Sequence record: OZ035792.1
Source of the DNA: Vectrevirus T205P5
Length of the DNA stretch: 43,663 nt
Reading direction: 5' to 3' (one strand)
Shown: piece after piece, positions 25,927-43,663 of the stretch
Layout of the letters: every line of letters starts with the position of its first letter
How positions within the stretch are numbered: the stretch's first letter is position 1
Notes under the pieces: model-generated
What the model was told of the DNA's origin: nothing
The model's input: only the letters and a program-made list of their open reading frames with translations
Database searches by the model: none
Position numbers and translations under genes: made by a program

Positions 25927-26430
25927 ATGTCACACTATGAATGTAAGAAGTGTCATAAGCGTTATGATTACTGTACTTGTGGTCAAGAGAAAACATCTTT
26001 TAAAGTTGGAGACAAGGTATTTCGTAATGAAAAAGATTCTATTCCTTGGAATCAATACTGCAAAGAAGCTGGTATTGACCCTGATAGCCCTGTAACCATA
26101 GATGATATTGATGGCATTAACTTGTGCTTTCGTGAGGTGAGGGGTACAGGTTGGGATTCCAAAAAATTCAAACTTGCATCTGATAAGTTAGACAACAATA
26201 TGGTAACTCAGCCTAAGCACTACGAGTTCTTTGATGGTGTAGAGGCAATCACTATCATTGCCCGCAGTATGACTGAAAAGCAATTCGCTGGGTACTGCAT
26301 GGGTAATGCCCTTAAGTATCGCCTGCGTGCAGGTAAGAAGTTCAATACTGAAGAAGACTTGAAGAAGGCAGACTATTATAAAGAGTTATTCCAGAAGCAT
26401 CGTCACGAATGTATTGATGAGGATATTTAA
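25927..26430 (+). CDS. Hypothetical protein with N-terminal zinc-ribbon-like CxxC...CxC
   Basis: GGAGGA RBS; YECKKCHKRYDYCTCG motif. Confidence 0.55.
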   Translation: MSHYECKKCHKRYDYCTCGQEKTSFKVGDKVFRNEKDSIPWNQYCKEAGIDPDSPVTIDDIDGINLCFREVRGTGWDSKKFKLASDKLDNNMVTQPKHYEFFDGVEAITIIARSMTEKQFAGYCMGNALKYRLRAGKKFNTEEDLKKADYYKELFQKHRHECIDEDI

Positions 26431-26431
26431 T

Positions 26432-26605
26432 ATGGAAGGTAAACTGTATAGAGGGTACTTCGGTAACTTATATAAAGTAAGCTCTCGCGGTTTTGTATTG
26501 ACCTCTGATGATGAAGGTGCAATGTGGCACCTAAGTGCATATGGTTCTAACTTAGCATACTTTAAAGAGGCAATAGTCAAAGGTGTGATGAAGGAGGTGA
26601 AATGA
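26432..26605 (+). CDS. Small hypothetical protein
   Basis: GAGGA RBS; translationally coupled between neighbouring genes. Confidence 0.4.
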   Translation: MEGKLYRGYFGNLYKVSSRGFVLTSDDEGAMWHLSAYGSNLAYFKEAIVKGVMKEVK

Positions 26606-27549
26606 ACATCTTCCAATTCCTAGGTCTTCCAGAAGACCACCGCAATCATCCATTCATGCTGGTGAAGCATCGCGGTGAAGTTCCTGAGAAGAAACTTACT
26701 TTTCCATGTTATGCACAGGTGAAACGAGATGGAATATTCAGTGCTGTTGTGGTGCGCAATGATGGTGCTGTTGCCGTCTTTGGTCGTACTGGTAAGAAGC
26801 TCGCAAATGTTGAAGCCTTGGAAAAGACATTTAGTGTATTTCCTGTCGGGTTGTATCTTGGTGAGTTGCAATCTATGGCTGTTGATGTTTATCTTGAAGC
26901 TCTGTCAGGAGTGGTAAACCCTAATCGTACAGAGCCACTTGACTTCATAGGCCAGCAGATTAAAGACAACCTGTATATCGACTTCTTCGATATGTTAACT
27001 ATTAAGGCATTCCATGATGGATTCACTGATGTTTCTTATCTCAAACGTTACGATGCTTTACATCGTCGTATCGGCACTCATCTTAGCGGGTGCAACGCTA
27101 TCCTTCCTATCACTCCTTGCCATAATGAGCGAGAAGTTGAAGCGTTTGCGCAAGAGCAAATAGATGCAGGACGTGAGGGTGCTGTATTCAAACTGGACTG
27201 CGATTATGAAGCAGGACACAAAGGTTATCGTCAGACTAAAGAAGTCCGTAAGGTAACTTATGACCTTACTTGTATTGGCTTTGAAGAAGGTAAAGGTAAA
27301 TACAAAGGTAAGGTAGCTAACCTCATTTTCAAGTGGAAAGGGGGCAAGACAATCAAAGCTATGCTCGGTAAAGGGTGGACTCATGCAGATGCAGAACAGA
27401 TGTTCCACGACATTAAACATGGTGGACGATTGAATGTCATTGGTAAAATCTTTGAAGTCAAAGGTCTTCAGGATTCAAGCAAGGGCAACATTCGTCTGCC
27501 CAAAGCGGGAGAATTAAGACATGACAAAGATGAACCAGATTTCTTTTGA
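26602..27549 (+). CDS. ATP-dependent DNA ligase (T7 gp1.3-like)
   Basis: Motif I KRDG in CYAQVKRDGIFSAVVV, motif IV-like EGAVFKL, C-terminal OB-domain motif LPKAGELRHDK. Confidence 0.8.
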   Translation: MNIFQFLGLPEDHRNHPFMLVKHRGEVPEKKLTFPCYAQVKRDGIFSAVVVRNDGAVAVFGRTGKKLANVEALEKTFSVFPVGLYLGELQSMAVDVYLEALSGVVNPNRTEPLDFIGQQIKDNLYIDFFDMLTIKAFHDGFTDVSYLKRYDALHRRIGTHLSGCNAILPITPCHNEREVEAFAQEQIDAGREGAVFKLDCDYEAGHKGYRQTKEVRKVTYDLTCIGFEEGKGKYKGKVANLIFKWKGGKTIKAMLGKGWTHADAEQMFHDIKHGGRLNVIGKIFEVKGLQDSSKGNIRLPKAGELRHDKDEPDFF

Positions 27550-27736
27550 TAGCATGAAGGCAACTCGTGCAGTTGAGGTAGCAGAAGCTATCTTTGAAAC
27601 TTTATCCTGTGGCATGGAAGTGCCATATACTTTACTTGCTGATGCAGAAGAACTTGGTCTTTCTGTAGAAGCTATCCAAGAGAAGGTTGACGAATTATAT
27701 GGTACAGACGAAGAAGAAACCGACGATTTCATTTGA
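27521..27736 (+). CDS. Small acidic hypothetical protein (71 aa)
   Basis: GGGAGAA RBS; overlaps the ligase 3' end; acidic C-terminus EEETDDFI. Confidence 0.4.
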   Translation: MTKMNQISFDSMKATRAVEVAEAIFETLSCGMEVPYTLLADAEELGLSVEAIQEKVDELYGTDEEETDDFI

Positions 27737-27746
27737 AGGAATGGAG

Positions 27747-27869
27747 ATGCTTGAGATGATTCTCAAGCCTTCTTCTCCGAAGGTGACTAAGACTCATGAA
27801 GAGTTAATCGTTGATGAAGTGAAGCGTTACATCATGGATTGTGTCAGAGCACAACTGGTGGTCCAATGA
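27747..27869 (+). CDS. Small hypothetical protein (40 aa)
   Basis: AGGA RBS; its stop overlaps the GNAT start (ATGA). Confidence 0.3.
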   Translation: MLEMILKPSSPKVTKTHEELIVDEVKRYIMDCVRAQLVVQ

Positions 27870-28327
27870 TACGTCCAGCTTCCTTCCTAGATATTCCTGA
27901 GATTATAAACCTTGGGAATAAATATGTGGAAGAGGAAGTCAAGGTAGTGGCCCATCACTCAGCCTCATGGAATGCAGAACAAAGCGCACATAACCTTTGC
28001 GCATCTCTTAGTAGGGAAGATTTATTCCTATGGGTTGCTGTAGATGAAGGGCGGATTGTAGGGTTCCTGTGGGCTGGCTATCACGAGTTGGCCCCTTGGA
28101 CACCTGTAAGGGTTGCCTCTGACATTCTCTTTTATATTATACCAGAGAAGCGAGGAACACTACTTGGTATGCGTCTCATCAAAGCCCTAAAGCAATGGGC
28201 TAGTGATAATGAATGCTCTGAGGTTCGCCTGTCTATCGCCTCTGGTATTAATGAAGAACGTGTCGGACGTATGTATAAGCGACTTGGCTTTGAACCGTTT
28301 GGCACTGTGTATAACCTGAAGTTCTAA
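27866..28327 (+). CDS. GNAT-family N-acetyltransferase
   Basis: IVGFLWA...ILFYIIPEKRGTLLGMRLIKAL...VRLSI...RMYKRLGFEP contains the acetyl-CoA-binding motif of the GNAT fold; about 153 aa. Confidence 0.75.
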   Translation: MIRPASFLDIPEIINLGNKYVEEEVKVVAHHSASWNAEQSAHNLCASLSREDLFLWVAVDEGRIVGFLWAGYHELAPWTPVRVASDILFYIIPEKRGTLLGMRLIKALKQWASDNECSEVRLSIASGINEERVGRMYKRLGFEPFGTVYNLKF

Positions 28328-28336
28328 GGAGACAAC

Positions 28337-28546
28337 ATGGGTGTTGTAAAGAAAGCATTTAAGGCTATCGGTCTTGCTCAAGATGCACCACGTATTGAAG
28401 CCAAAGTCCCAGCACAGCAGCTTGAGCGTAAGCCTGAGACTGAAGCTGAAGATATTCAAATTGGTGCAGGTGGTGATGATGCGACTGCATCTGCAAAAGG
28501 TAAGCGCGGCCTTGTCCGTCCGGTAGCTTCTAGCTTGAAGGTGTAA
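28337..28546 (+). CDS. Small virion-associated protein candidate (gp6.7/gp7.3-like)
   Basis: AAGGAGA RBS; immediately precedes the portal gene; charged and Gly/Ala-rich like T7 gp6.7 and gp7.3. Confidence 0.4.
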   Translation: MGVVKKAFKAIGLAQDAPRIEAKVPAQQLERKPETEAEDIQIGAGGDDATASAKGKRGLVRPVASSLKV

Positions 28547-28547
28547 T

Positions 28548-30098
28548 ATGAAACAGAGCACAGATTTGGAGTATGGAGGTAAGCGGTCTAAGATACCTAA
28601 GCTATGGGAGAAGTTCTCCACTAAACGTAGCTCTTTCCTTGATAGGGCGAAGCATTACTCCAAATTAACCTTGCCCTATCTGATGAATGACAAAGGTGAT
28701 AACGAGACTTCGCAGAATGGATGGCAAGGTGTAGGTGCTCAGGCAACTAATCATCTAGCCAACAAGCTAGCGCAAGTACTATTCCCTGCACAGCGTTCCT
28801 TCTTCCGTGTAGACTTAACTGCACAAGGTGAGAAGGTTCTTAATCAGCGTGGCCTGAAGAAGACAGAGCTAGCTACCATCTTCGCTCAAGTGGAAACACG
28901 GGCAATGAAAGAGTTAGAGCAACGTCAATTCCGGCCTGCTGTAGTGGAAGCATTCAAGCATCTTATTGTTGCTGGTAGCTGTATGCTATACAAGCCGAGC
29001 AAAGGTGCAATCAGTGCTATCCCAATGCATCACTACGTAGTTAACCGTGATACCAATGGCGACCTGTTAGACATTATCTTGCTACAAGAGAAAGCCTTAC
29101 GTACCTTTGACCCAGCTACACGTGCTGTAGTAGAGGTTGGCCTGAAAGGTAAGAAGTGCAAGGAAGATGACAGCGTTAAGCTGTACACACATGCTAAGTA
29201 TCTTGGTGATGGATTTTGGGAACTCAAGCAATCTGCTGATGATATTCCTGTAGGTAAGGTTAGTAAGATCAAATCAGAAAAGCTACCTTTCATCCCATTA
29301 ACTTGGAAGAGAAGCTATGGTGAGGATTGGGGTCGCCCTCTTGCAGAGGATTACTCCGGTGACTTATTCGTTATCCAATTCTTATCTGAAGCAGTTGCCC
29401 GTGGTGCTGCACTGATGGCAGATATTAAGTACCTGATTCGTCCGGGTGCTCAAACTGATGTTGACCACTTTGTTAACTCTGGCACTGGTGAAGTTGTCAC
29501 TGGTGTAGAAGAAGATATCCATATTGTACAGTTAGGTAAGTATGCAGACCTCACACCTATTAGCGCGGTTCTAGAGGTATACACTCGCCGTATCGGTGTT
29601 GTCTTCATGATGGAGACAATGACACGCCGTGACGCCGAACGTGTTACTGCTGTAGAAATCCAGCGAGATGCGTTAGAGATTGAGCAGAACATGGGTGGGG
29701 TATACTCCCTCTTTGCTACTACTATGCAATCGCCAGTAGCGATGTGGGGTCTGCTGGAGGCAGGGGAGTCCTTCACTAGTGACTTAGTGGACCCTGTGAT
29801 TATCACAGGTATTGAAGCTTTAGGACGCATGGCTGAGTTGGATAAACTGGCTAACTTTGCTCAGTATATGTCACTGCCATTACAATGGCCTGAGCCTGTC
29901 CTAGCTGCTGTGAAATGGCCTGACTATATGGATTGGGTGCGTGGTCAAATCTCTGCTGAACTGCCGTTCCTTAAATCAGCTGAAGAGATGGCACAAGAAC
30001 AGGAAGCACAGATGCAAGCACAGCAAGCACAGATGCTTGAAGAAGGTGTGGCTAAGGCCGTGCCGGGTGTAATTCAACAAGAACTTAAGGAGGCGTAA
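28548..30098 (+). CDS. Portal (head-to-tail connector) protein, T7 gp8-like
   Basis: 516 aa; matches T7 gp8 as recalled (GVGA..NHLANKL..LFP, VEAFKHLIVAGS, YTHAKYL, RVTAVEIQR, GGVYS). Confidence 0.9.
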   Translation: MKQSTDLEYGGKRSKIPKLWEKFSTKRSSFLDRAKHYSKLTLPYLMNDKGDNETSQNGWQGVGAQATNHLANKLAQVLFPAQRSFFRVDLTAQGEKVLNQRGLKKTELATIFAQVETRAMKELEQRQFRPAVVEAFKHLIVAGSCMLYKPSKGAISAIPMHHYVVNRDTNGDLLDIILLQEKALRTFDPATRAVVEVGLKGKKCKEDDSVKLYTHAKYLGDGFWELKQSADDIPVGKVSKIKSEKLPFIPLTWKRSYGEDWGRPLAEDYSGDLFVIQFLSEAVARGAALMADIKYLIRPGAQTDVDHFVNSGTGEVVTGVEEDIHIVQLGKYADLTPISAVLEVYTRRIGVVFMMETMTRRDAERVTAVEIQRDALEIEQNMGGVYSLFATTMQSPVAMWGLLEAGESFTSDLVDPVIITGIEALGRMAELDKLANFAQYMSLPLQWPEPVLAAVKWPDYMDWVRGQISAELPFLKSAEEMAQEQEAQMQAQQAQMLEEGVAKAVPGVIQQELKEA

Positions 30099-31018
30099 TG
30101 TCTTTCTCATTTACTGAACCGTCAACCACTCACCCTACTGCTGAAGAGGGTCCGGTAGAAACCAAGGAGGTAACAACTGATGCTGCTACTACTGATGCTC
30201 CTGCTGACGCTGGCACTGCTGTACAAGATGACAATGCTGGTGCACAACCTACTGAAGACACCGGAGGAGAAGCTTCTGGACAGCCTTCAGAAAAAGGAGA
30301 CAATGGCGGAGAGAATGGTGAACCTAAGCCAGATGATACCGCGACCGACACTGAGGAAGTGCAATACTTCTTCGGAGAACACGAAGTAACAGTAGACATC
30401 CCACAGGATGTAACTGACAGCCTTAAAGAGAAAGGCATTGATGCCAAGCAGGTTGCCAAGGAACTCTATTCCAAAGGTGGCAAGTTTGAACTGTCAGATG
30501 CAACCAAGCAGAAATTGTATGATGCTTTTGGCAAGTTTGCGGTAGATGCTTACCTGTCAGGTCTAAAGGCTCAAAATGAAGCCTTCTTCCTGAAAGAAGC
30601 CAACGCAGCTAAAGAGTTGGAAGCAGCTAACACCCAACGCTTCTCTGATGTTTCTAAGGAAATTGGTGGCGAAGAAGGTTGGTCCCGTCTTGAGGAGTGG
30701 GCACTTGAAGCGCTGTCTGATGACGAACTAATGGCATTCAATGCGGTGATGGAGTCTGGCAACCAGTACCTCCAGCAGTACGCTGTGCGTGAACTGGAGA
30801 GCCGCCGTAAGGCTGCACAGGGTGATGATAAGCCGTCCCTGATTGAGCCATCAGCACCTGCTAAGGCTAATGAAGAGAATGGCCCACTGACGCGAGATCA
30901 GTACGTTCAAGCAATCGCAACTCTTAGCCAGAAGTACGGCAATGACCGTAAAGCTATGGCAGAAGCTCAGGCTAAACTGGACGCCCGTCGCCGTGCTGGC
31001 ATGGCTCGCGGTATCTAA
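30098..31018 (+). CDS. Capsid assembly (scaffolding) protein, gp9-like
   Basis: 306 aa, acidic and low-complexity at the N-terminus, helical at the C-terminus; between portal and major capsid genes. Confidence 0.7.
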   Translation: MSFSFTEPSTTHPTAEEGPVETKEVTTDAATTDAPADAGTAVQDDNAGAQPTEDTGGEASGQPSEKGDNGGENGEPKPDDTATDTEEVQYFFGEHEVTVDIPQDVTDSLKEKGIDAKQVAKELYSKGGKFELSDATKQKLYDAFGKFAVDAYLSGLKAQNEAFFLKEANAAKELEAANTQRFSDVSKEIGGEEGWSRLEEWALEALSDDELMAFNAVMESGNQYLQQYAVRELESRRKAAQGDDKPSLIEPSAPAKANEENGPLTRDQYVQAIATLSQKYGNDRKAMAEAQAKLDARRRAGMARGI

Positions 31019-31023
31019 TTCAG

Positions 31024-31048
31024 TATTTACTGGACACTATAGAAGGGA
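31024..31048 (+). promoter_or_regulatory. SP6-type phage RNAP promoter (consensus) upstream of the major capsid gene
   Basis: TATTTACTGGACACTATAGAAGGGAG. Confidence 0.85.
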
Positions 31049-31097
31049 GAAAAGTTCTCCCTAGTTATCAATTTGATTTATAAGGAGATTATAATAC

Positions 31098-32306
31098 ATG
31101 TCTACACCGAATACTCTGACTAACGTTGCTGTATCTGCATCCGGTGAGGTTGACAGCCTTCTCATTGAGAAGTTTAATGGTAAGGTCAATGAGCAGTACC
31201 TGAAAGGTGAGAACATTCTGTCCTACTTTGATGTACAAACTGTTACTGGAACTAACACAGTGAGCAACAAATATTTGGGCGAAACTGAGTTGCAGGTGCT
31301 AGCACCGGGTCAGTCTCCTAATGCCACCCCTACTCAGGCGGATAAAAACCAGTTGGTAATTGATACCACTGTCATTGCTCGTAACACTGTGGCTCACATC
31401 CACGATGTACAAGGTGACATCGATAGCCTGAAACCAAAACTGGCTATGAACCAAGCCAAGCAACTGAAACGTCTGGAAGACCAGATGGCAATTCAGCAGA
31501 TGCTGTTAGGCGGTATTGCTAACACCAAGGCCAAACGTAACAAGCCGCGTGTTAAAGGGCATGGCTTCTCTATCAACGTTAACGTAACTGAGAGTGAAGC
31601 ACTGGCTAACCCTCAGTATGTTATGGCTGCGGTAGAGTATGCTCTGGAGCAACAGCTTGAGCAGGAAGTGGACATCTCTGATGTAGCTATCATGATGCCG
31701 TGGAAGTTCTTCAATGCTCTGCGTGATGCAGACCGAATTGTAGATAAGACTTACACTATCAGCCAGTCTGGTGCAACCATTAATGGCTTCGTTCTCTCTT
31801 CTTATAACTGCCCTGTGATCCCGTCTAACCGATTCCCTACCTTCGCTCAGAATCAGGCTCACCACCTGTTGTCTAATGAAGATAACGGATACCGTTATGA
31901 CCCTATCGCAGAGATGAATGGTGCAGTTGCTGTTCTGTTCACTGCCGACGCACTGCTGGTGGGTCGTACCATTGAAGTGACTGGTGACATCTTCTATGAG
32001 AAGAAAGAGAAGACTTATTACATTGACACCTTCATGGCTGAGGGTGCAATCCCTGACCGTTGGGAAGCAGTGTCTGTAGTTACCACTAAACGTAATGCAA
32101 CTTCTGGTGCTGCTGAAGGTTCTGGTGATGATCACGCAACCGTACTGGCTCGTGCACAGCGTAAGGCTGTATATGTCAAAACCGAAGGTGCTGCGGCTGC
32201 ATTCTCTGCTGCCCCAGCAGGTATCCAAGCGGAAGACCTTGTAGCGGCGGTACGTGCTGTAATGGCAAATGACATTAAGCCGACTGCAATGAAACCTACT
32301 GAGTAA
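31098..32306 (+). CDS. Major capsid protein
   Basis: 402 aa; strong codon bias; consensus promoter upstream and Tphi-like terminator downstream; position after the scaffold gene. Confidence 0.85.
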   Translation: MSTPNTLTNVAVSASGEVDSLLIEKFNGKVNEQYLKGENILSYFDVQTVTGTNTVSNKYLGETELQVLAPGQSPNATPTQADKNQLVIDTTVIARNTVAHIHDVQGDIDSLKPKLAMNQAKQLKRLEDQMAIQQMLLGGIANTKAKRNKPRVKGHGFSINVNVTESEALANPQYVMAAVEYALEQQLEQEVDISDVAIMMPWKFFNALRDADRIVDKTYTISQSGATINGFVLSSYNCPVIPSNRFPTFAQNQAHHLLSNEDNGYRYDPIAEMNGAVAVLFTADALLVGRTIEVTGDIFYEKKEKTYYIDTFMAEGAIPDRWEAVSVVTTKRNATSGAAEGSGDDHATVLARAQRKAVYVKTEGAAAAFSAAPAGIQAEDLVAAVRAVMANDIKPTAMKPTE

Positions 32307-32313
32307 CACCTAT

Positions 32314-32350
32314 GCCCTATCTACCTTGCGTAGGTAGGGTTCTTTTTGTT
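32314..32350 (+). terminator. Tphi-like terminator after the major capsid gene
   Basis: CCCTATCTA-ccttgcg-TAGGTAGGG hairpin with one G-U wobble, followed by TTCTTTTTGTT. Confidence 0.65.
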
Positions 32351-32360
32351 AGGAGGATTC

Positions 32361-33098
32361 ATGCCTGTAATTAGACAAACCAGTAAATTAGGACATATGA
32401 TGGAAGATGTGGCCTTCCAGATTATTGATAGTAAGCTGGAAGCGGTAAACTTGTGTATGCGAGCTATTGGTCGTGAGGGTGTGGATTCCCTCGACTCAGG
32501 GGACTTGGACGCAGAAGATGCAAGCAAAATGATCGACATCGTATCCCAGCGGTTCCAGTACAACAAAGGAGGTGGCTGGTGGTTCAATCGTGAACCAAAC
32601 TGGCAACTTGCACCAGACACTAACGGTGAAGTTAATTTACCTAACAACTGCCTAGCAGTATTGCAGTGTTATGCTTTAGGTGAAAAGAAAGTACCTATGA
32701 CTATGCGAGCAGGTAAGCTCTACTCTACTTGGAGTCACACCTTTGATATGCGTAAGCATGTTAATGCTAATGGTATGATTCGTCTTACCTTACTCACCTT
32801 ACTACCCTACGAGCATCTACCTACAAGTGTAATGCAGGCTATTGCCTATCAAGCTGCTGTAGAGTTTATTGTGTCTAAGGATGCAGATCAGACTAAGCTA
32901 GCCACTGCGCAGCAGATAGCCACTCAGCTTCTTATGGATGTACAATCTGAGCAAATGTCACAGAAGCGATTAAACATGCTGGTACATAACCCCACTCAGC
33001 GTCAGTTTGGTATCATGGCTGGTGGCTCTCAGAATGTACCTGCTTACTCTCATTCACCTTATGAGAGTTGGGCGCTCCGTCCGTGGGAGGATCGTTAA
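32361..33098 (+). CDS. Tail tubular protein A (gp11-like)
   Basis: AGGAGGA RBS before the ATG at 32361; position between capsid and tail tube B. Confidence 0.7.
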   Translation: MPVIRQTSKLGHMMEDVAFQIIDSKLEAVNLCMRAIGREGVDSLDSGDLDAEDASKMIDIVSQRFQYNKGGGWWFNREPNWQLAPDTNGEVNLPNNCLAVLQCYALGEKKVPMTMRAGKLYSTWSHTFDMRKHVNANGMIRLTLLTLLPYEHLPTSVMQAIAYQAAVEFIVSKDADQTKLATAQQIATQLLMDVQSEQMSQKRLNMLVHNPTQRQFGIMAGGSQNVPAYSHSPYESWALRPWEDR

Positions 33099-35500
33099 TG
33101 GAAGTACAAGGTTCATTAGGTAGACAAATCCAAGGGATTAGCCAGCAGCCGCCAGCGGTACGCTTGGATGGTCAGTGCACAGCTATGGTTAATATGATAC
33201 CTGATGTAGTGAATGGTACTCAATCACGCATGGGTACAACTCATATTGCAAAGATACTTGATGCGGGGACTGATGACATGGCTACTCATCATTATCGCAG
33301 AGGTGATGGTGATGAAGAGTATTTCTTCACGTTGAAGAAAGGACAAGTTCCTGAGATATTTGATAAGTATGGGCGCAAATGTAATGTGACTTCACAAGAT
33401 GCACCTATGACCTACCTCTCTGAGGTTGTTAATCCAAGGGAAGATGTGCAATTCATGACGATAGCTGATGTTACTTTCATGCTTAATCGTAGGAAAGTAG
33501 TTAAAGCTAGTAGCAGGAAGTCACCTAAAGTTGGAAACAAAGCCATTGTGTTTTGTGCGTATGGTCAATATGGTACATCTTATTCCATTGTAATTAATGG
33601 GGCCAACGCTGCTAGTTTTAAAACACCGGATGGTGGAAGTGCAGACCATGTTGAACAAATTCGAACTGAACGTATCACTTCTGAATTGTACTCTAAGTTG
33701 CAGCAATGGAGCGGTGTGAGTGACTATGAAATACAAAGAGACGGTACTAGTATATTTATCGAGAGACGGGATGGTGCTAGCTTTACAATAACAACCACCG
33801 ATGGTGCAAAAGGTAAGGACTTAGTGGCTATCAAGAATAAAGTTAGCTCTACTGACCTACTCCCTTCTCGTGCGCCTGCTGGTTATAAAGTACAAGTGTG
33901 GCCTACTGGCAGCAAACCTGAGTCTCGTTACTGGCTGCAAGCTGAGCCTAAAGAGGGAAACCTTGTGTCTTGGAAAGAAACAATAGCTGCTGATGTATTA
34001 CTTGGGTTTGATAAAGGCACAATGCCTTACATTATTGAACGTACAGATATCATCAACGGCATAGCTCAATTCAAGATAAGACAAGGTGATTGGGAAGATC
34101 GTAAAGTAGGGGATGACTTGACTAACCCTATGCCCTCTTTTATTGATGAGGAAGTACCCCAGACAATAGGTGGAATGTTCATGGTGCAGAACCGCCTATG
34201 CTTTACAGCAGGTGAAGCGGTTATTGCTTCTCGTACATCATACTTCTTCGATTTCTTTCGTTATACGGTTATCTCTGCATTGGCAACTGACCCCTTTGAT
34301 ATTTTCTCAGATGCTAGTGAAGTTTACCAGCTAAAACATGCAGTGACCTTAGATGGCGCTACCGTGTTGTTCTCTGATAAGTCACAATTCATACTGCCAG
34401 GCGATAAGCCTTTAGAGAAGTCAAATGCACTGCTTAAGCCTGTTACAACATTTGAAGTGAACAATAAAGTGAAGCCAGTAGTAACTGGTGAATCGGTAAT
34501 GTTTGCCACTAATGATGGTTCTTACTCTGGTGTACGAGAGTTCTATACAGACTCTTATAGTGACACTAAGAAGGCACAAGCAATCACAAGTCATGTGAAT
34601 AAACTCATCGAAGGTAACATTACCAACATGGCAGCAAGCACCAATGTCAACAGGTTACTTGTCACTACCGATAAGTATCGTAACATAATCTACTGCTACG
34701 ATTGGTTATGGCAAGGAACAGACCGTGTACAATCAGCATGGCATGTATGGAAGTGGCCTATAGGTACAAAGGTGCGAGGTATGTTTTATTCTGGTGAATT
34801 ACTTTACCTGCTCCTTGAGCGAGGAGATGGCGTGTATCTGGAGAAGATGGACATGGGTGATGCACTAACCTACGGTTTGAATGACCGCATCAGAATGGAT
34901 AGGCAAGCAGAGTTAGTCTTCAAGCATTTCAAAGCAGAAGATGAATGGGTATCTGAGCCGCTCCCTTGGGTTCCTACTAACCCAGAACTTTTAGATTGCA
35001 TCTTAATCGAGGGTTGGGATTCATATATTGGCGGCTCTTTCTTATTCAAGTACAACCCTAGTGACAATACTTTGTCTACAACCTTTGATATGTATGATGA
35101 CAGCCATGTAAAGGCGAAGGTTATTGTTGGTCAGATTTACCCTCAAGAGTTTGAACCTACGCCTGTGGTTATCAGAGACAATCAAGACCGTGTATCCTAC
35201 ATTGATGTACCAGTTGTAGGATTGGTTCACCTTAATCTTGACATGTACCCCGATTTCTCCGTAGAAGTTAAGAATGTGAAGAGTGGTAAAGTACGTAGAG
35301 TATTAGCGTCAAACCGTATAGGTGGTGCTCTCAATAATACAGTAGGCTATGTTGAACCGAGAGAAGGTGTCTTCAGATTTCCACTGAGAGCTAAGAGCAC
35401 GGATGTTGTTTATCGTATTATTGTAGAGTCACCTCACACATTCCAGCTTCGTGATATTGAGTGGGAGGGGAGCTACAATCCAACCAAAAGGAGGGTCTAA
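33098..35500 (+). CDS. Tail tubular protein B (gp12-like)
   Basis: About 800 aa; N-terminal GISQQP motif as in T7 gp12; GGGAGGA RBS; start overlaps the upstream stop. Confidence 0.85.
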   Translation: MEVQGSLGRQIQGISQQPPAVRLDGQCTAMVNMIPDVVNGTQSRMGTTHIAKILDAGTDDMATHHYRRGDGDEEYFFTLKKGQVPEIFDKYGRKCNVTSQDAPMTYLSEVVNPREDVQFMTIADVTFMLNRRKVVKASSRKSPKVGNKAIVFCAYGQYGTSYSIVINGANAASFKTPDGGSADHVEQIRTERITSELYSKLQQWSGVSDYEIQRDGTSIFIERRDGASFTITTTDGAKGKDLVAIKNKVSSTDLLPSRAPAGYKVQVWPTGSKPESRYWLQAEPKEGNLVSWKETIAADVLLGFDKGTMPYIIERTDIINGIAQFKIRQGDWEDRKVGDDLTNPMPSFIDEEVPQTIGGMFMVQNRLCFTAGEAVIASRTSYFFDFFRYTVISALATDPFDIFSDASEVYQLKHAVTLDGATVLFSDKSQFILPGDKPLEKSNALLKPVTTFEVNNKVKPVVTGESVMFATNDGSYSGVREFYTDSYSDTKKAQAITSHVNKLIEGNITNMAASTNVNRLLVTTDKYRNIIYCYDWLWQGTDRVQSAWHVWKWPIGTKVRGMFYSGELLYLLLERGDGVYLEKMDMGDALTYGLNDRIRMDRQAELVFKHFKAEDEWVSEPLPWVPTNPELLDCILIEGWDSYIGGSFLFKYNPSDNTLSTTFDMYDDSHVKAKVIVGQIYPQEFEPTPVVIRDNQDRVSYIDVPVVGLVHLNLDMYPDFSVEVKNVKSGKVRRVLASNRIGGALNNTVGYVEPREGVFRFPLRAKSTDVVYRIIVESPHTFQLRDIEWEGSYNPTKRRV

Positions 35501-36222
35501 TGGCTATAGGTTCAGCCGTTATGGCTGGTATGTCTTCTATTGGTAGCATGTTTGCAGGCAGTGGTGCAGCAGCCGCTGCTGGAGGTGCTGCCGCAGGTGG
35601 CGGAGGTTTGCTAGGTTCACTAGGTGGATTCCTAAGTGGCTCTACTGCTGGTTTCTCTAATGCTGGCCTTCTTGGTGCTGGCCTTCAAGGGTTAGGCTTG
35701 ATTGGTGATCTATTTGGTGGAAGTGATGAAGCCAAGGCGATGAAGAAAGCACAAGAAGAGCAATGGCGGCAGCAGCTTATTGCTACACAAGAGGCGTACA
35801 AGACAGTGGCAGACGCAGAACGTTCTGCTGCTAAACAATATCATGCAGATGCAATCAGCAATCAGGCTTCACTGCTACAGCAGCGAGCACAGGTTGCATT
35901 ACTTGCTGGGGCTACTGGTACTGGTGGTAACTCTGTGTCTTCTATGCTGAATGACTTAGCAGCAGAAGGCGGAAGGAACCAGAGTACAATTATCGATAAC
36001 TATGAGAATCAGAAGATTAACTTCACAAACCAGCTTAAGTCCATCCAACGTGGTGGTCAGGTGCAGATGCGTGAGTTTAAGAAACCTTCTGCCGTGAGCA
36101 CCTTGGTGCAAGGTATACCGAGTCTGGCATCTGCCTATGTAACAGGTAGTAAGTCCGGCATGGCTTTAGGTAAAGCTTTAACTGATTCTCGTACATATTC
36201 ATCTGGAACAAGAGGTATTTAA
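35500..36222 (+). CDS. Internal virion protein (gp14-like), Gly/Ala-rich
   Basis: AAGGAGGG RBS; Gly/Ala-rich N-terminal half; between tail tube B and the large internal virion proteins. Confidence 0.6.
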   Translation: MAIGSAVMAGMSSIGSMFAGSGAAAAAGGAAAGGGGLLGSLGGFLSGSTAGFSNAGLLGAGLQGLGLIGDLFGGSDEAKAMKKAQEEQWRQQLIATQEAYKTVADAERSAAKQYHADAISNQASLLQQRAQVALLAGATGTGGNSVSSMLNDLAAEGGRNQSTIIDNYENQKINFTNQLKSIQRGGQVQMREFKKPSAVSTLVQGIPSLASAYVTGSKSGMALGKALTDSRTYSSGTRGI

Positions 36223-39170
36223 TGGCAATTGAGCGACAAGCAGTACAAGGTCTGCCACAAGTGCAGGCCACTTCTCCTAATGTCATGACCTTTGCACCTC
36301 AGCAAGTTGGAGGTGTGGAGGCTGGCGTAGCTTCTACCTCCGGTAGTCGATTTATCGAAGACCTTATTCGAGCAGCCAGTAGTGTAGCTGATGTAACCAC
36401 TGGTATCCTTAATCAAAAGATTGAGGAAGATAAGGTTGTTCAAATGGAACGGGCATATAACGGATTAATGCCCTCTGAGGATGCAACTCGTGGTGGCGCT
36501 CGTGCTAACATGCTTGTCAAAGCTCAACTGCTAGCTAATGATGAAGCAGCACGAATGAAAGACATGGCTACTCGTTTCCAAGGAACGGATGACGAGTGGA
36601 CACAACTTATGGTTGACTCTCGTAATGAGATGCAGAATAAGCTGTTCCAGCAATACCCTGAGTTGCAAGGTGACAAAGATACCATGCGTATGGTCACTAA
36701 TGTCTTCCAAGAACAGCAGCCTCAGATTTGGGCTACACGAACCCAGCATAAACTTGACCGTGAACAAGCAGACCGTGAGGATACCTTTGACGGGCGAGTG
36801 GCTTCTACTTGGGATTCTAATATTGACCCTGAAGCCTCTGGCTATGCTTTACAGGAACGAATCCGCGAAGGTCTTACTCAAGGATTACTACCTGAACAGA
36901 TGCACAAGAAGTTAGTCCAGCGAGCAATTTCACTTGCACAAGGCGGTGATGTTAGCATGGCTGAAGCCTTGAAGTATGTGAAGGACGATAAGGGTGTTTC
37001 TGTTTATGCTAAGAATCCACAGCTTATCACAGCCATCACTAGTGGTAATGCAGTTTGGGCTAGGAATAATGTAGCTGATGTAACTCGTATGTCTTTCGAA
37101 GTTAAAGAATCATACCTTGCAGGTGATTTAACTGATGAAGAATTGTTGGAACGAGCACAGCACATTAATAATCTGACAGGTAATTCTGTCTTCTCTAACC
37201 CAGAACTAGAGGCACTGATGCGCCAACGAGCTAAGCAGAATGCAGAGCTAGGTGCAATGCAGGATATGCGCCGTGAGCTTTACTCCGACCGCCTGACTGG
37301 CTTCCAAGGTAAGACTGATAAAGAGAAGAAGGCTTACATTGATGTTATCAAACAAGATAGCCAACTTTATGCAGACCAGCAAATCAAACAACGTGGCTTG
37401 GACCCTTACAGTCAAGAGGCTGAAGCTATTCGTGGTGCAGTGGAAGTGCAGCGCCTGCAATTCATGAACTCCAAAGGCTTAGTGGATGATACCTTTGAGT
37501 CTCGTATCAAAGCCATGGAATCTATGCTATCGCCTGAGCACTTTGCCAAGGGCGAACCACAGGAGTTGATGACTATTCGCCAGTTGTGGGAACAGTTGCC
37601 AGAAGAGAGCCGAGGTGTCTTTGGTGACACGGTGAATGGCTACATGGATAACTACAACACTGCACTACAAATGGGAGAGACACCTTTGCAGGCTGCAAGG
37701 TTTGCGCGTGAAGCACAGCAGAAATTCTCTCGTACTGAGAAGGAAACCAAGAAGTTCAACTCAGCTATTGGAGATGCACTGGATGAGGTATCTGGTGCTG
37801 GCTGGTTTGATGGTAAAACCGAAGTGTCAGACTTAGGTAAAGCTATTGCGGAAGAAGAGTTACGAGCTAAGGCCAATATGTTGTGGTCTAGTGGTATGCG
37901 TAACATGGATTCTATCAAGAAGGCTTTAATTACTTGGGGCAATAAACGCTACACTCAAACAGAGGATGCAAAGACTTCCGGTGGCTATTTCATTAAAGGT
38001 GATTACACTTCTGCATCTGATATGCTTATGTCAGTTGGGAAAGGCGTAAACCCTACCGATGTACCTCTGGCGCTTGGTAGGTATGTAGAAACACAGATGC
38101 CAGAATTGAAGAAGGAGCTTCAAGAGTGGGAAACTAAAGATGATATATACATTGATTACAATGAACAGAAAGGTACTTTCGTGATTCGTGCTGGTGCAGC
38201 AGGTCGCCCTCTTTCTGGAGTAATCCCTGTAACCTCTTTAGATACCACTTCACTACTAGATTCTGCCTATCAGAAGAAAGTAGAGGAACGAGATAAAGGC
38301 GAGTATGTTCACCCTTATCGTACAGATATTGGTGCACAAGAGCCTATGCCAGCTAAACCAACTGCCAAAGATATTGGTAAATTTGGACTAGCTAACTTCC
38401 TCATGTCTTCTGCTTTTGCTTCTGGTGAGAATCTGCCTTCTAACTTCGAGATTAACTATCGAGGTAATATGCAACAATTCTATGACAAGCTAGCTATGGA
38501 TGAGAATAAAGATAAAGTTGGCTTTAATAAGGCAACTGGAACCTTTACTCCATATAAAGATGCTCACGGTGAGTCTATCGGTTACGGTCATTTCTTAACG
38601 GAAGAAGAGAAGCGAAACGGGTATATTAAGATTGGTGATGAACTAGTTCCCTATCGAGGGTCTATGTCTCAGCTTACAGAGAGCAAGGCTCGCGCTCTTA
38701 TGGAGCAAGATGCCAAGAAGCATGTGCCTCCTACTCGTGACTGGAAGATTCCGTTTGACCAGATGCATCCTGCACAGCAACGTGGCTTGATGGATTTAAC
38801 CTACAATTTAGGTAAAGGTGGAATCCAGAACTCACCGCGTGCTCTTGCTGCATTCAAAGCTGGTAAGCTTACGGAAGGCTTTATCGAAATGCTGGGCACT
38901 GCATCAAGTGAAGGTAAGCGTATCCCTGGTCTACTGAAGCGACGCGCTGAGGCATACAATATGGCATCTGCTGGTGGTGTGCCTAAGATTACCGAAGTGG
39001 AGACTCGTGAAGATGGCTCCATGTGGGTTAGGTTTGGTGGACCTATGCCAGCAGGTTCTGTCTCGGCATGGATTCATAAACGTATTGGTGCGGATGGTTG
39101 GTATCAGGTTTATGAGGCTGCACCTACCAAGTTAGCTAAAGGTTCTAAGGTAGGTAAATTTAAGTTGTAG
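36222..39170 (+). CDS. Internal virion protein with C-terminal lysozyme-like (GH24-type) peptidoglycan hydrolase domain
   Basis: 982 aa; the C-terminal region contains YKDAHGESIGYGH, resembling the T4 lysozyme motif YKDTEGYYTIGIGH. Confidence 0.7.
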   Translation: MAIERQAVQGLPQVQATSPNVMTFAPQQVGGVEAGVASTSGSRFIEDLIRAASSVADVTTGILNQKIEEDKVVQMERAYNGLMPSEDATRGGARANMLVKAQLLANDEAARMKDMATRFQGTDDEWTQLMVDSRNEMQNKLFQQYPELQGDKDTMRMVTNVFQEQQPQIWATRTQHKLDREQADREDTFDGRVASTWDSNIDPEASGYALQERIREGLTQGLLPEQMHKKLVQRAISLAQGGDVSMAEALKYVKDDKGVSVYAKNPQLITAITSGNAVWARNNVADVTRMSFEVKESYLAGDLTDEELLERAQHINNLTGNSVFSNPELEALMRQRAKQNAELGAMQDMRRELYSDRLTGFQGKTDKEKKAYIDVIKQDSQLYADQQIKQRGLDPYSQEAEAIRGAVEVQRLQFMNSKGLVDDTFESRIKAMESMLSPEHFAKGEPQELMTIRQLWEQLPEESRGVFGDTVNGYMDNYNTALQMGETPLQAARFAREAQQKFSRTEKETKKFNSAIGDALDEVSGAGWFDGKTEVSDLGKAIAEEELRAKANMLWSSGMRNMDSIKKALITWGNKRYTQTEDAKTSGGYFIKGDYTSASDMLMSVGKGVNPTDVPLALGRYVETQMPELKKELQEWETKDDIYIDYNEQKGTFVIRAGAAGRPLSGVIPVTSLDTTSLLDSAYQKKVEERDKGEYVHPYRTDIGAQEPMPAKPTAKDIGKFGLANFLMSSAFASGENLPSNFEINYRGNMQQFYDKLAMDENKDKVGFNKATGTFTPYKDAHGESIGYGHFLTEEEKRNGYIKIGDELVPYRGSMSQLTESKARALMEQDAKKHVPPTRDWKIPFDQMHPAQQRGLMDLTYNLGKGGIQNSPRALAAFKAGKLTEGFIEMLGTASSEGKRIPGLLKRRAEAYNMASAGGVPKITEVETREDGSMWVRFGGPMPAGSVSAWIHKRIGADGWYQVYEAAPTKLAKGSKVGKFKL

Positions 39171-39187
39171 TATCTAACTCAAGGCTT

Positions 39188-39203
39188 GTCTCACATGTGA
39201 GAC
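39188..39203 (+). repeat. Conserved palindrome GTCTCAC-AT-GTGAGAC, copy 6 of 6 (extended stem 39182-39208)
   Basis: Exact arms; between the two large internal virion protein genes. Confidence 0.8.
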
Positions 39204-39234
39204 AGGTCTTTATGATAGGCACTATGGAGGAATT

Positions 39235-42200
39235 ATGGAACAAGACATTAAGACTAATTGGGCTGGATATGTCCAGTCTACTCCTGAGCCGTTTTCTATT
39301 GAGGCGGCTCCGGTATCGGCTCCTACGATACGCCAGCGTAATGAGTTACAAGAGCAAGTTCTTGAAGCTAAAGCTGATGCTGATATCTTAGGTGCTGTAG
39401 GTGCTGCCTTCCAGAATGAGTGGTTGGCATTCGGAGGCAAGCGGTGGTATGACCGTGCCACTGCTGATTTCACACCTCAACCAGACTTCGAGATACAACC
39501 TGAGCAACGTGAAGCACTACGTTTCAAATATGGTACAGATATGATGCAGACAATCACTGAGGGTGTTCGTTCTGAGGATGAATTGAACTTCCGTATTCAG
39601 AATGCTGATGAAGACCTTGAGCGCAATAAGCGCATTGCTCAGGCTGGCTGGGTTGGCTCTGTGGCGACGATTGGCGCTGCTGTGCTTGACCCTGTGGGAT
39701 GGGTTGCCTCTATTCCAACCGGTGGTGCCGCTAAAGTTGGACTCGTAGGCCGTGCTGTGCGTGGCGCTATCGCCGCTGGCGTAAGTAATGCCGCTATTGA
39801 ATCCGTATTGGTCCAAGGTGACATGACTCGTGATTTAGATGACATTATGGTAGCACTAGGCTCCGGTATGGCTATGGGTGGCGTTATTGGAGCTGTAGCG
39901 CGTGGTAGGGCCACTAAGCTCAGTGAGCAAGGAGATGACAGGGCTGCGAGCATTGTGCGCAGTGCAGACGCAGGGGACCGCTATGTGCGTGCTGTTGCTG
40001 ATGATAGTATCGGTGCGATGCGTGTTAAGGGTGAAGAGGTACTCACTGAGGGTGCATTTGATATCTCTAGCAAAGGTGAAGATTTGCTGAAAACCCTACA
40101 GCGGGAAGGTAATGCAATTGATATGACCCCTCGCCGCTGGGCCGGAACTCTGTCTGCCCTTGGTACTGTCGTACATTCCTCTCAGGATGCAAGTGTACGC
40201 GGCCTTGGTGCTCGCCTGTTTGAGTCCCCCCAAGGCTTAGGTATGCAGAAGGCATCTGCTAGTCTCATGCAGAATACTAACTTGAACCGTCTGAAATCTG
40301 CTGATATGAATCGTTTCAACGATGGGTTCGATTTATGGCTCAAAGAGAATAATATCAATCCGGTTGCAGGTCATACTAACTCTCACTATGTGCAGCAATA
40401 TAATGAGAAGGTATGGGAAGCTGTACGCATCGGTATGGATGAGTCTACGCCTAAGTCTATCCGTATGGCAGCAGAGGGGCAGCAAGCTATGTATCGTGAA
40501 GCATTAGCATTACGTCAACGCTCTGGTGAATCTGGGTTTGAAAAGGTTAAAGCAGATGATAAGTACATGCCTGATATTTTTGACAGTATGAAGGCTCGTC
40601 GTCAATTCAGTATGCACGATAAAGAGGACATCATTGAGTTATTCTCTCGTGCATACCAGAATGGTTCTCGTAAGGTTCCAAAGGAAGTGGCTGATGATAT
40701 TGCACGAGCACAAGTAAACCGCGTTGCTGATGCCACCTTGACCGGACAGCTTAGCTTTGAAAAGGCTATGTCTGGTCAAACCAAAGCAGAATATGAAGCA
40801 CTAATGCGCAAAGCAGGCTTTAGTGATGAAGAGATTGAAAAGATGGTAGAAGCTCTGGATAATAAAGAAACCAGAGATAATATCTCTAACCGAGCTAAGA
40901 TGAGTTTAGGCTTAGATGTTACTCAAGAGTACAATGGCATTCGTATGCGTGACTTTATGAACACTAACGTGGAAGAGTTAACAGATAACTACATGAAGGA
41001 AGCGGCAGGTGGTGCTGCCTTGGCTCGTCAAGGTTTCTCTACCTATCAGGCTGCACTTAATGCAATTGATCTTGTAGAGCGAAATGCACGAAATGCAGCT
41101 AAAGATACAAAAGCACACGCACAATTTGAAGCGGAGTCGGCTAAGATCCGTCAATCAGAGCCTGATTACAAGAAGGCACAAGAGAAGATTGAAGAGTTAA
41201 AGAAGCGACTTAAATTGAAAGAGAAAGATGAAGCAGCTGGTCTGGCTATTGATGAAGAAATCCGTCAGATGCGAGAAGGGCTTCGCTTGATTATGGGTAA
41301 ATCTATTGATTCAAACCCACAAGATTTGTCTACTAAAATGCTGCGTCGTGGGCGTGACATTACAGGTGTACTTCGCTTAGGTCAGATGGGCTTCGCACAG
41401 CTAGGTGAACTTGCTAACTTCATGGGTGAGTTTGGTATTGCTGCCACCACTATGGCTTTAGGTAAGCAATTCCGCTTCACCTCTAAGGCGTTGCGTAATG
41501 GCGATGGCTTCTTTCGAGATAAGAATTTAGCTGAGGTTGAGCGAATGGTAGGTTACATCGGTGAGGATAACTGGCTGACAACTAAGGGTGCGCGTCCCGA
41601 TGAGTTTGGTGATGTAACCACAGTGCGAGGTATGATGGCCCATTTTGACCAGTCCATGAACTCTATACGACGTGCTCAGACAAACCTATCCCTCTTCCGC
41701 ATGGCACAGGGTTCTCTGGAGCGAATGACCAATAGGCAAATAGCTTTGTCTTTCATTGACCACCTTGAAGGCAAGAAGATTATTCCTCAGAAGAAACTGG
41801 AGGAACTTGGTCTTACTCAGGAGTTCATGACTAACCTACAGAAGCACTATGATGCTAACTCTAAAGGTTCTGGCTTGCTTGGCTTTGATACAATGCCTTA
41901 TGCCATGGGTGAAACTTTAGCTAATGCTATTCGTCGTAAGTCAGGTCTAATTATCCAACGTAACTTCATTGGTGATGAAGGTATCTGGATGAACAAAGCA
42001 CTAGGTAAGACATTTGCACAGCTTAAGTCATTCTCTCTTGTATCTGGTGAGAAGCAATTTGGTCGAGGGATTCGCCACGATAAAATTGGTCTTGCTAAGA
42101 AGACAGCTTATGGTTTTGCTTTGGGTTCAATAGTGTATGCGGCAAAAGCCTATGTGAACTCTATTGGTCGAGAAGACCAAGATGAATATTTGGAAGAGAA

Positions 42201-42543
42201 GTTATCGCCTAAAGGGTTGGCCTTTGGTGCAATGGGTATGATGAGTACAACTGCTGTATTTAGTCTAGGTGGAGATTTCTTAGGTGGCCTAGGTGTTCTA
42301 CCTTCTGAGTTAGTACAATCCCGTTATGAGGCTGGCTTTCAGACTAAGGGTTTGATAGACCAAATACCACTAGTAGGTGTTGGTCAAGATGCATATCGTT
42401 TAGCAGATTCTATAACTAAATACGCAGAGGGTGATACAGAAGGTGTAGATGTGGCACGTAGGGCTTTACGCTTAGTGCCTCTAGCTAATGTAATAGGAAT
42501 CCAGAACGCATTGCGTTATGGCTTAGATGAACTGGAGGATTAA
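39235..42543 (+). CDS. Large internal virion (core) protein, gp16-like
   Basis: 1102 aa; GGAGG RBS; final and largest gene of the internal virion protein block. Confidence 0.75.
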   Translation: MEQDIKTNWAGYVQSTPEPFSIEAAPVSAPTIRQRNELQEQVLEAKADADILGAVGAAFQNEWLAFGGKRWYDRATADFTPQPDFEIQPEQREALRFKYGTDMMQTITEGVRSEDELNFRIQNADEDLERNKRIAQAGWVGSVATIGAAVLDPVGWVASIPTGGAAKVGLVGRAVRGAIAAGVSNAAIESVLVQGDMTRDLDDIMVALGSGMAMGGVIGAVARGRATKLSEQGDDRAASIVRSADAGDRYVRAVADDSIGAMRVKGEEVLTEGAFDISSKGEDLLKTLQREGNAIDMTPRRWAGTLSALGTVVHSSQDASVRGLGARLFESPQGLGMQKASASLMQNTNLNRLKSADMNRFNDGFDLWLKENNINPVAGHTNSHYVQQYNEKVWEAVRIGMDESTPKSIRMAAEGQQAMYREALALRQRSGESGFEKVKADDKYMPDIFDSMKARRQFSMHDKEDIIELFSRAYQNGSRKVPKEVADDIARAQVNRVADATLTGQLSFEKAMSGQTKAEYEALMRKAGFSDEEIEKMVEALDNKETRDNISNRAKMSLGLDVTQEYNGIRMRDFMNTNVEELTDNYMKEAAGGAALARQGFSTYQAALNAIDLVERNARNAAKDTKAHAQFEAESAKIRQSEPDYKKAQEKIEELKKRLKLKEKDEAAGLAIDEEIRQMREGLRLIMGKSIDSNPQDLSTKMLRRGRDITGVLRLGQMGFAQLGELANFMGEFGIAATTMALGKQFRFTSKALRNGDGFFRDKNLAEVERMVGYIGEDNWLTTKGARPDEFGDVTTVRGMMAHFDQSMNSIRRAQTNLSLFRMAQGSLERMTNRQIALSFIDHLEGKKIIPQKKLEELGLTQEFMTNLQKHYDANSKGSGLLGFDTMPYAMGETLANAIRRKSGLIIQRNFIGDEGIWMNKALGKTFAQLKSFSLVSGEKQFGRGIRHDKIGLAKKTAYGFALGSIVYAAKAYVNSIGREDQDEYLEEKLSPKGLAFGAMGMMSTTAVFSLGGDFLGGLGVLPSELVQSRYEAGFQTKGLIDQIPLVGVGQDAYRLADSITKYAEGDTEGVDVARRALRLVPLANVIGIQNALRYGLDELED

Positions 42544-43505
42544 TGAGTTATACTTTCACAGAACATATAGCCAACGGTACGCAAGTAACCTATCCCTTTA
42601 GCTTTGCTGGTAGGGATAAAGGTTATCTTCGTGCCTCAGATGTGATAGTGGAGTCTCTTCAAGGTAACACTTGGATTGAGGTTACATCTGGCTGGCAACT
42701 AACTGGCACGCACCAGATTACTTTTGATGTAGCACCAGTTGCAGGTTTGAAGTTCCGTATTAGAAGGGAAGTACAAAAGGAGTATCCATACGCTGAGTTT
42801 GACCGTGGTGTTACCTTGGATATGAAGTCTTTAAATGGTTCTTTCATTCATATACTGGAGATTACACAGGAGTTACTTGACGGGTTTTATCCAGAAGGAT
42901 ACTTCATTAAACAGAATGTAAGCTGGGGCGGCAATAAGATTACTGATTTGGCTGATGGCACAAATCCGGGAGATGCAGTAAATAAAGGGCAGCTTGATGC
43001 CATCGACAAGAAGCATACAGATTGGAACGCCAAACAGGACATTGAGATTGCTGGCCTTAAGGCTGGTATGACTTCTGGTATTGCGCACAGAACTGTTCCT
43101 TGGTACACGATAGCCCAAGGTGGTGAGATTTCCGTAAAACCACCTTATGAATTTCAAGATGCACTAGTTTTCCTTAATGGGGTGTTGCAGCACCAAATTG
43201 TAGGCGCATACTCTATAAGCAACAACACTATCACTTTCGCAGAGCCGCTTGTGGCTGGTACAGAGGTGTATGTGCTGATTGGTAGTCGTGTGGCTACATC
43301 TGAACCTAATATTCAGTTAGAGTTGAACTTTGACTTAGTAGAAGGCCAACAAGTAGTACAGATTGGCTCTGCATTTAAGTACATTGAGGTCTACCTTGAT
43401 GGATTATTACAACCTAAACTTGCTTATCAGGTAGACGGTGACATTGTTACTTTCTCAGAGGGAGTGCCAGAATGCCGGATGACTGCTAAGATTATCACAG
43501 CATAA
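42543..43505 (+). CDS. Tail-fibre adaptor protein (T7 gp17 N-terminal domain-like), anchor for the tailspikes
   Basis: 320 aa resembling the N-terminal tail-attachment domain of T7 gp17, with no distal receptor-binding part; the two tailspikes encoded at 3997-7639 lack this domain. Confidence 0.7.
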   Translation: MSYTFTEHIANGTQVTYPFSFAGRDKGYLRASDVIVESLQGNTWIEVTSGWQLTGTHQITFDVAPVAGLKFRIRREVQKEYPYAEFDRGVTLDMKSLNGSFIHILEITQELLDGFYPEGYFIKQNVSWGGNKITDLADGTNPGDAVNKGQLDAIDKKHTDWNAKQDIEIAGLKAGMTSGIAHRTVPWYTIAQGGEISVKPPYEFQDALVFLNGVLQHQIVGAYSISNNTITFAEPLVAGTEVYVLIGSRVATSEPNIQLELNFDLVEGQQVVQIGSAFKYIEVYLDGLLQPKLAYQVDGDIVTFSEGVPECRMTAKIITA

Positions 43506-43514
43506 GGAGGTAGG

Positions 43515-43663
43515 ATGATTAACTCCGAACTGGTAGATAGTGGTGTGAAGCTTGCGCCACCTGCACTCGTATCAGGTGGGTACTTCCTCGGTATCAGTTG
43601 GGATAATTGGGTGTTAATAGCAACATTCATTTATACCGTGTTGCAAATTGGGGACTGGTTTTA
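43515..43663 (+). CDS. Class II holin (T7 gp17.5-like), 3'-truncated at the window end
   Basis: AGGAGG RBS; LVSGGYFLGISWDNWVLIATFIYTVLQIG resembles T7 gp17.5; the frame continues into positions 1-46 if the window is circularly joined. Confidence 0.6.
   Translation, partial: MINSELVDSGVKLAPPALVSGGYFLGISWDNWVLIATFIYTVLQIGDWF

Follow-up and report, generated by a model that had tools for sequence, protein, structure and literature searches.

The sequence record of the coliphage Vectrevirus T205P5 opens inside a holin gene, about 8 kb from the predicted ends of the virion DNA

A short reading frame runs off the 3′ end of the sequence record OZ035792.1 (Vectrevirus T205P5), which raises the question of whether the ends of this record are the ends of the phage DNA or a cut made elsewhere in the genome. 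The window, i.e., the whole stretch of DNA analysed here, is 43,663 nt long and comes from a K1-5-like coliphage of the genus Vectrevirus (Molineuxvirinae, Autographiviridae; the taxonomy of the K1-5-like group is taken from database records). Such a phage is a lytic coliphage of the SP6/K1-5-like branch of the T7 supergroup. Our analysis indicates that the window is almost certainly one unit length of a K1-5-like Vectrevirus, i.e., the virion genome minus one copy of its terminal repeat, opened in the holin gene by a convention of the record; the true ends are most likely located about 8 kb away at a direct terminal repeat (DTR) of around 235 bp.

The holin gene across the ends of the record

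The original prediction stated that the holin frame leaves the 3′ end of the window, resumes in frame at position 1 and stops at positions 44–46. Joining 43515..43663 to 1..46 indeed yields an uninterrupted ORF of 64 codons, and retranslation of the joined ends, the check proposed with the prediction, reveals no frame disruption. The ORF starts with an ATG (43515..43517) and its codon 50 (TA/T, Tyr; here and below the slash marks a junction) is completed by base 1 of the window. The joined product of 64 amino acids reads MINSELVDSGVKLAPPALVSGGYFLGISWDNWVLIATFIYTVLQIGDWF/YNKFKIWREKRERTQ, in full MINSELVDSGVKLAPPALVSGGYFLGISWDNWVLIATFIYTVLQIGDWFYNKFKIWREKRERTQ. The Shine-Dalgarno sequence of the gene overlaps the TAA stop codon (43503..43505) of the upstream tail-fibre gene (Table 1).

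We did not retain the continuity of the frame as evidence for the join. Fifteen more stop-free codons would be found by chance with a probability of about 49%, which makes frame continuity uninformative, and we therefore relied on homology instead. The joined holin has the same length as K1-5 gp38 and is identical to it at 63 of 64 positions. It matches the T7 holin family PF10746 (E = 1.5e-27, 95.5 bits for a cut-off of 25.4; residues 4–59 aligned to profile positions 1–61 of 61) and the holin family PHROG 920 (E = 5.8e-28 over residues 1–63), and both matches cross the join at residue 49/50. At the nucleotide level, a 693-nt query with the join at its centre was matched in one piece, over 80% or more of its length, by 54 phage records, five of them at 99.9% identity. 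In the whole-genome BLAST alignment, K1-5 positions 35367/35368 correspond to window positions 43663/1, with zero bases lost or duplicated. We found no overlap or repeat of 8 nt or more between the two ends of the window, be it a k-mer remnant or a DTR.

The split ORF is predicted to encode a T7 gp17.5-type holin (K1-5 gp38) in which a basic cytoplasmic tail follows one main transmembrane helix. Its match to the family HMM exceeds the curated threshold over the full length of the profile. According to hydropathy calculation (no topology predictor being involved), the product has the features of a small membrane protein: its Kyte-Doolittle profile peaks at residues 32–46, in a hydrophobic helix, and the charged C-terminal tail (residues 50–64) contains six K/R and two D/E residues. 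The break in the record falls three residues past this hydrophobic core and severs the tail. In T7, gene 17 (tail fibre) is followed by gene 17.5 (holin). Once the window is joined, the order is likewise gp37-like gene (42543..43505), holin (43515..46) and terS (30..329), i.e., the holin gene lies between the tail-fibre and small terminase genes. The T7 gp17.5 protein (PF10746, 'Phage holin T7 family, holin superfamily II') resembles the joined product in its size of about 64–67 amino acids, in its hydrophobic helix with a basic tail and in the location of its gene between those for the tail fibre and the small terminase.

The relationship between the holin and small terminase genes is the reverse of the one originally proposed, in which the holin stop codon was placed 14 nt upstream of the terS GTG. 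The GTG (30..32) in fact precedes the holin stop codon by 14 nt, so that the two genes overlap by 17 nt (30..46). An identical overlap is present in the K1-5 annotation (holin 35219..35413, terS 35397..35696). The Shine-Dalgarno sequence of terS, GGAGGGAG (18..25), is located within the holin coding sequence. The 17-nt overlap, with the putative ribosome-binding site of terS inside the holin gene, suggests translational coupling of the two genes. The start of terS agrees with its PHROG profile, whose position 1 falls on residue 1, and the nuclease domain of the terL protein is of the T7 type (PF22530, E = 1.6e-35).

By inference from its family, the holin would permeabilise the inner membrane late in infection and let the endolysin and the spanin lyse the cell; the holin function of gp38 in K1-5-like phages is an annotation. 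In the SP6-like phage KBNP1315, the homologously placed holin has a single transmembrane domain, and its co-expression enhanced endolysin-mediated lysis (PMC4640515). Separated lysis genes have been described in SP6-like phages (PMC4640515). We observed a second lysis cluster (2976..3865) after terL in the window, so that two holin-annotated genes are present in two places. The SP6/K1-5 group differs from T7 in its endolysin, an M15-type peptidase in contrast to the amidase gp3.5 of T7, and in the location of the endolysin and spanin genes after terL.

Table 1. Coordinates of features in the 43,663-nt window
Feature	Position	Strand	Basis or remark
Tail fibre/adaptor gene, K1-5 gp37 homologue, directly upstream of the holin gene	42543..43505	+	Profile and homology matches; 99.4% aa identity
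Holin Shine-Dalgarno AAGGAGG, 4 nt before the ATG	43504..43510	+	Read from the sequence
Holin, 5′ part: codons 1–49 and two bases of codon 50; N-terminus and main hydrophobic segment (about residues 32–46)	43515..43663	+	63/64 to K1-5 gp38; PF10746, PHROG 920; hydropathy
Holin, 3′ part: third base of codon 50, codons 51–64 and TAA (44..46); basic C-terminal tail YNKFKIWREKRERTQ	1..46	+	Joined ORF, homology
Small terminase subunit terS, 99 aa, GTG start	30..329	+	PF11123; PHROG 891; 100% aa identity to K1-5 gp39
SP6-type promoter core GACACTATAGAAG inside terS, 129 nt past the record start	129..141	+	Conserved at K1-5 35496
Large terminase subunit terL, 632 aa	329..2227	+	T7-type terminase RNaseH-like nuclease domain; 99.7% aa identity to K1-5 gp40
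Endolysin	2976..3320	+	PHROG 894
Second holin-annotated ORF, 49 aa	3429..3578	+	PHROG 4712
Rz-like spanin	3665..3865	+	PHROG 8971
First tailspike	3997..5895	+	98.7% to K1-5 gp46 K5 lyase
Second tailspike, 552 aa	5981..7639	+	PHROG 20231
Single collapsed DTR copy, 235 bp (K1-5 1 at 8027, 44385 at 8261)	8027..8261	+	228/236 identical to the K1-5 DTR (97%)
Ocr-like anti-restriction protein	9588..9959	+	PHROG 2568 (E = 1.3e-47)
RNA polymerase, 875 aa	11287..13914		99.8% identical to the K1-5 enzyme
Nucleotidyltransferase-like ORF, 197 aa	20451..21044	+	PHROG 1614 (E = 2.4e-39)
gp36-homologue internal virion protein, 1102 aa	39235..42543	+	93% identity to K1-5
SP6-type promoter cores	129..141, 2234, 3903, 10074, 14015, 16316, 17007, 21052, 21515, 22661, 25829, 31033	+	Core scan

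Gene content and collinearity with K1-5

The window is collinear with the genome of K1-5 (NC_008152 / AY370674), the type phage, once it is rotated. In BLAST comparisons, positions 1..35367 of K1-5 correspond to 8027..43663 of the window and positions 35368..44385 to 1..8261, in order, and the rotated window is covered by eleven collinear segments with 89–98% nucleotide identity. Collinearity and nucleotide identity with the type phage, by which membership was judged, thus place the window in the K1-5-like group. Its RNA polymerase is accompanied by 12 SP6-type promoter cores (GACACTATAGAAG, at most two mismatches) on the plus strand, for 1.2 expected by chance, and these cores are common to K1-5. 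The window therefore combines the single-subunit phage RNA polymerase and the promoter set of its own by which SP6-K1-5-like phages are recognised.

The expectation that each module of a T7-supergroup phage would be present once is borne out by the gene content, 48 of the 52 K1-5 CDSs having a counterpart, each in a single collinear position. Among these are the genes for the RNA polymerase (99.8%), primase/helicase, DNA polymerase, portal, scaffold, capsid, tail tube A and B, the three internal virion proteins, the gp37 fibre and the holin, as well as those for terS (100%), terL (99.7%), the endolysin, the spanin and the K5 lyase tailspike (98.7%). Four K1-5 genes have no counterpart: genes 5, 12 and 15.5, which are small accessory ORFs, and the one for the K1 endosialidase, in place of which a different tailspike gene is present. 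Gene order, the holin (63/64), the 17-nt overlap of holin and terS and the DTR (97% identical) are all shared with K1-5. The two sequences differ in that the K1-5 record begins at the physical left end and contains both copies of the DTR, whereas the window starts about 8 kb from that end and contains one. Collinearity with the rotated window, together with the gene content, supports the proposal that the window is a whole genome opened inside the holin gene and not at its true termini, the termini themselves being placed by homology.

A few genes depart from the K1-5 pattern. The Ocr-like protein, encoded by a variable early gene, is only around 60% identical to its K1-5 counterpart, for more than 95% in most genes. 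The gp36-homologue internal virion protein is longer than in K1-5 (1061 aa) through an insertion of about 41 amino acids; a protein of equal length is present in phage 6949. The window also contains an extra gene, encoding the 197-aa nucleotidyltransferase-like protein, within some 570 bp of inserted sequence that K1-5 lacks between its genes 14 and 15. Besides its PHROG match, this protein has a Pfam match to the PolyA_pol head domain that is right at the cut-off (E = 8e-5), and a hypothetical protein is encoded at the same place in phage 6949.

The tailspike region contains two genes. The first encodes a protein with a C-terminal Peptidase_S74 chaperone domain, in addition to its similarity to the K5 lyase. 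The second occupies the place of the K1 endosialidase gene of K1-5. Its product shares 98.7% amino acid identity with the second tailspike of Vectrevirus T205P4, 88.6% (aa 18–552) with a tail protein present in St11Ph5 and ShWW44, two unrelated phages of 72 kb, and about 46–50% with those of several phages of Aeromonas and E. coli; a weak pectate-lyase-like Pfam match was also detected. The phage is thus predicted to pair a K5-capsule depolymerase with a second spike of non-K1 type, and the second tailspike looks like a putative receptor-binding module swapped between phage families.

The terminal repeat and the predicted ends of the virion DNA

The sequence of K1-5 was deposited with an exact DTR of 234 bp. 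We found a single copy of the homologous repeat in the window and no second copy. To its left lies the homologue of the unique sequence from the right end of K1-5 (...GTGTCAGCTCTC/TCGCCCTCGCC...), and to its right the homologue of the unique sequence from the left end (...GGGCTA/TCTGTTC...). As judged from this homology, the arrangement is that of a putative concatemer junction, which is also the arrangement of an assembly in which two copies have been collapsed. One repeat copy between right-end and left-end unique sequence, together with a terminase of the T7 type, is a likeness to T7-type genome ends; the repeat sequence, in contrast, is specific to Vectrevirus, and its duplication at packaging is inferred here.

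The boundaries of the repeat agree with those of several related records, although some of these records may themselves have been oriented by homology: at the left, the records of EEc2 and EEc4 start at window position 8025, that of VEc3 at 8026 and that of K1-5 at 8027; at the right, those of K1-5 and AAPEc6 end at 8261, and the EC120 and AAPEc6 records begin at 8262. DTRs have also been reported in other SP6-like phages, with lengths of 179 bp in UAB_Phi78, for which the methods describe a Bal31 test for DTR ends (PMC4837284), and 208 bp in KBNP1315 (PMC4640515). On the basis of the T7-type terminase, the conserved DTR, the agreeing record boundaries and the DTRs of relatives, the virion DNA is predicted to be linear and unpermuted with fixed ends, running from 8027 through 43663/1 to 8261, for a length of about 43,898 bp. 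The left end is most likely located at 8027 (8025–8027 in relatives) and the right end at 8261. The term 'circular permutation' used in the original prediction is therefore appropriate for the record and not for the virion DNA, which, from homology to K1-5, is expected to be linear with DTRs.

Several short repeats are present in the DTR and its flanks. Inside the DTR, the motif CTTAGTG occurs three times, a 21-mer (AGGGAGGC...) occurs twice and TCGCCC recurs at the far left end. Two copies of CGTTCACTC lie close to the DTR on its right side. These repeats are reminiscent of the short repeat arrays near the ends of T7. A scan for sigma-70 promoters and terminators around the DTR produced no more candidates than expected by chance. 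We also considered a minus-strand ORF (7702..8172, 156 aa) as a possible gene; it is probably spurious, as it has no Pfam match and lies across part of the DTR and the plus-strand homologues of gp48 and gp49.

A shared opening point and its meaning

A search with the opening 300 nt of the window gave 77 matching phage records, 17 of which are ENA 'Vectrevirus' records (OZ0357xx/OZ0358xx). In all 17, record position n corresponds to window position n, i.e., they start at the homologous base of the holin gene; they comprise OZ035727 (T205P4), OZ035769 and OZ035804 (PDP21P3), OZ035816 (LI10P5) and 13 others. The break site is internal in each of the other 60 records, which lie outside this series. 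Direct inspection of T205P4, PDP21P3 and LI10P5 revealed an identical break (...GGTTTTA/T...), and joining the ends of each restores a holin of 64 amino acids; LI10P5 keeps the break although the 17 nt that follow it differ. The resemblance of these records to the window extends to the DTR region, which gives a single match in 16 of the 17 (one collapsed copy) and matches two places in NIC06P3, and to the lack of a terminal overlap; the first 300 nt of PDP21P3 are identical to those of the window. None of them is the same genome, however: the best overall identities are around 96–97%, and the accessory genes and tailspike regions differ. Other start choices exist, since the record of phage 6949 begins at the holin ATG and that of phage 6948 at the terS GTG.

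The common cut interrupts codon 50 of the 64 in the holin gene, and terS starts 29 nt further on. We considered a codon boundary or an alternative start codon as the reason for this choice and rejected both, since position 1 falls in third place of a holin codon and in second place of a codon in the terS frame.

Three readings would give the ends of the window another significance. If they were the physical ends of the virion DNA, the genome would truly start and end inside the holin gene. The sole fact in favour of this is that 18 independent sequences (the window and the 17 ENA records) end at one point. The two halves of the gene would then be truncated fragments, yet joined they are identical to K1-5 gp38 at 63 of 64 positions; moreover, the window ends carry no terminal repeat, whereas relatives have DTRs of 179–234 bp, the conserved DTR is intact and internal at 8027..8261, and the break site is internal in the 60 other records. 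We consider it next to impossible that the ends are physical. Headful packaging, by contrast, would produce a population of circularly permuted and terminally redundant virion DNA without fixed ends. The window closes into a circle with no leftover bases, an outcome equally expected from the assembly of a permuted genome. This mode of packaging is nevertheless very improbable, given a terminase of the T7 type (PF22530; identity to K1-5 of 99.7% for terL and 100% for terS), the linear deposition of K1-5 with an exact DTR whose sequence and both flanks are conserved at 97% in the window, and the DTR ends reported for SP6-like relatives (PMC4837284, PMC4640515). As judged by homology only, the genome displays neither of the marks of a headful-packaged one, the absence of fixed termini and a headful terminase.

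The circle could also be an artefact of assembly, with sequence missing or duplicated at the join and the genome incomplete or mis-closed, since the k-mer overlap of circular contigs can be mis-trimmed by assemblers. Such an error is hardly credible here: K1-5 35367/35368 aligns to 43663/1 without a gap, five records agree with the window at 99.9% identity over the 693-nt query around the join, the joined ORF is neither longer nor shorter than its homologues and the K1-5 modules are all present once. There remains the idea that a physical or coverage discontinuity, e.g., a site-specific nick or a secondary terminase cut in the holin gene, made all 18 sequences open at one base, to which we assign very little probability. 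The ordinary alternative would be that the authors rotated all genomes to one start. The opening point is a convention of the record, of bioinformatic origin, and not a DNA end, because the cut is common to the whole ENA Vectrevirus series.

The phage names of these ENA records match, by name, those of a collection described in a preprint (bioRxiv 10.1101/2023.11.22.567924; PRJEB69283). The passages of this preprint retrieved by keyword indicate that the collection was assembled with SPAdes into single contigs, and these passages do not mention the determination of termini or the choice of a genome start. A circular unit that is opened by convention could have arisen as follows. The DNA packaged by K1-5-like phages would be linear, with a DTR of about 235 bp at its fixed ends. 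Assembly from short reads would merge the two DTR copies, and replicative concatemers would likewise hold one copy between units. With the copies collapsed, the assembly graph would close into a circle, and a linear record would then need a cut somewhere.

The split holin gene is thus the product of an ordinary and already known assembly convention and reveals no new phage biology. Its consequences are practical ones. Read linearly, the record loses the holin gene, which is reduced to two fragments, neither of them in the ORF list; it also conceals where the genome truly ends and falls short of the virion DNA by one repeat copy (about 235 bp). The 17 ENA Vectrevirus records are all unannotated, and linear gene calling would miss the holin in each of them. 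For annotation, engineering and comparison, the T205P5 sequence should be re-opened at position 8027, with 8027..8261 appended at the right end and the holin gene annotated across the join.
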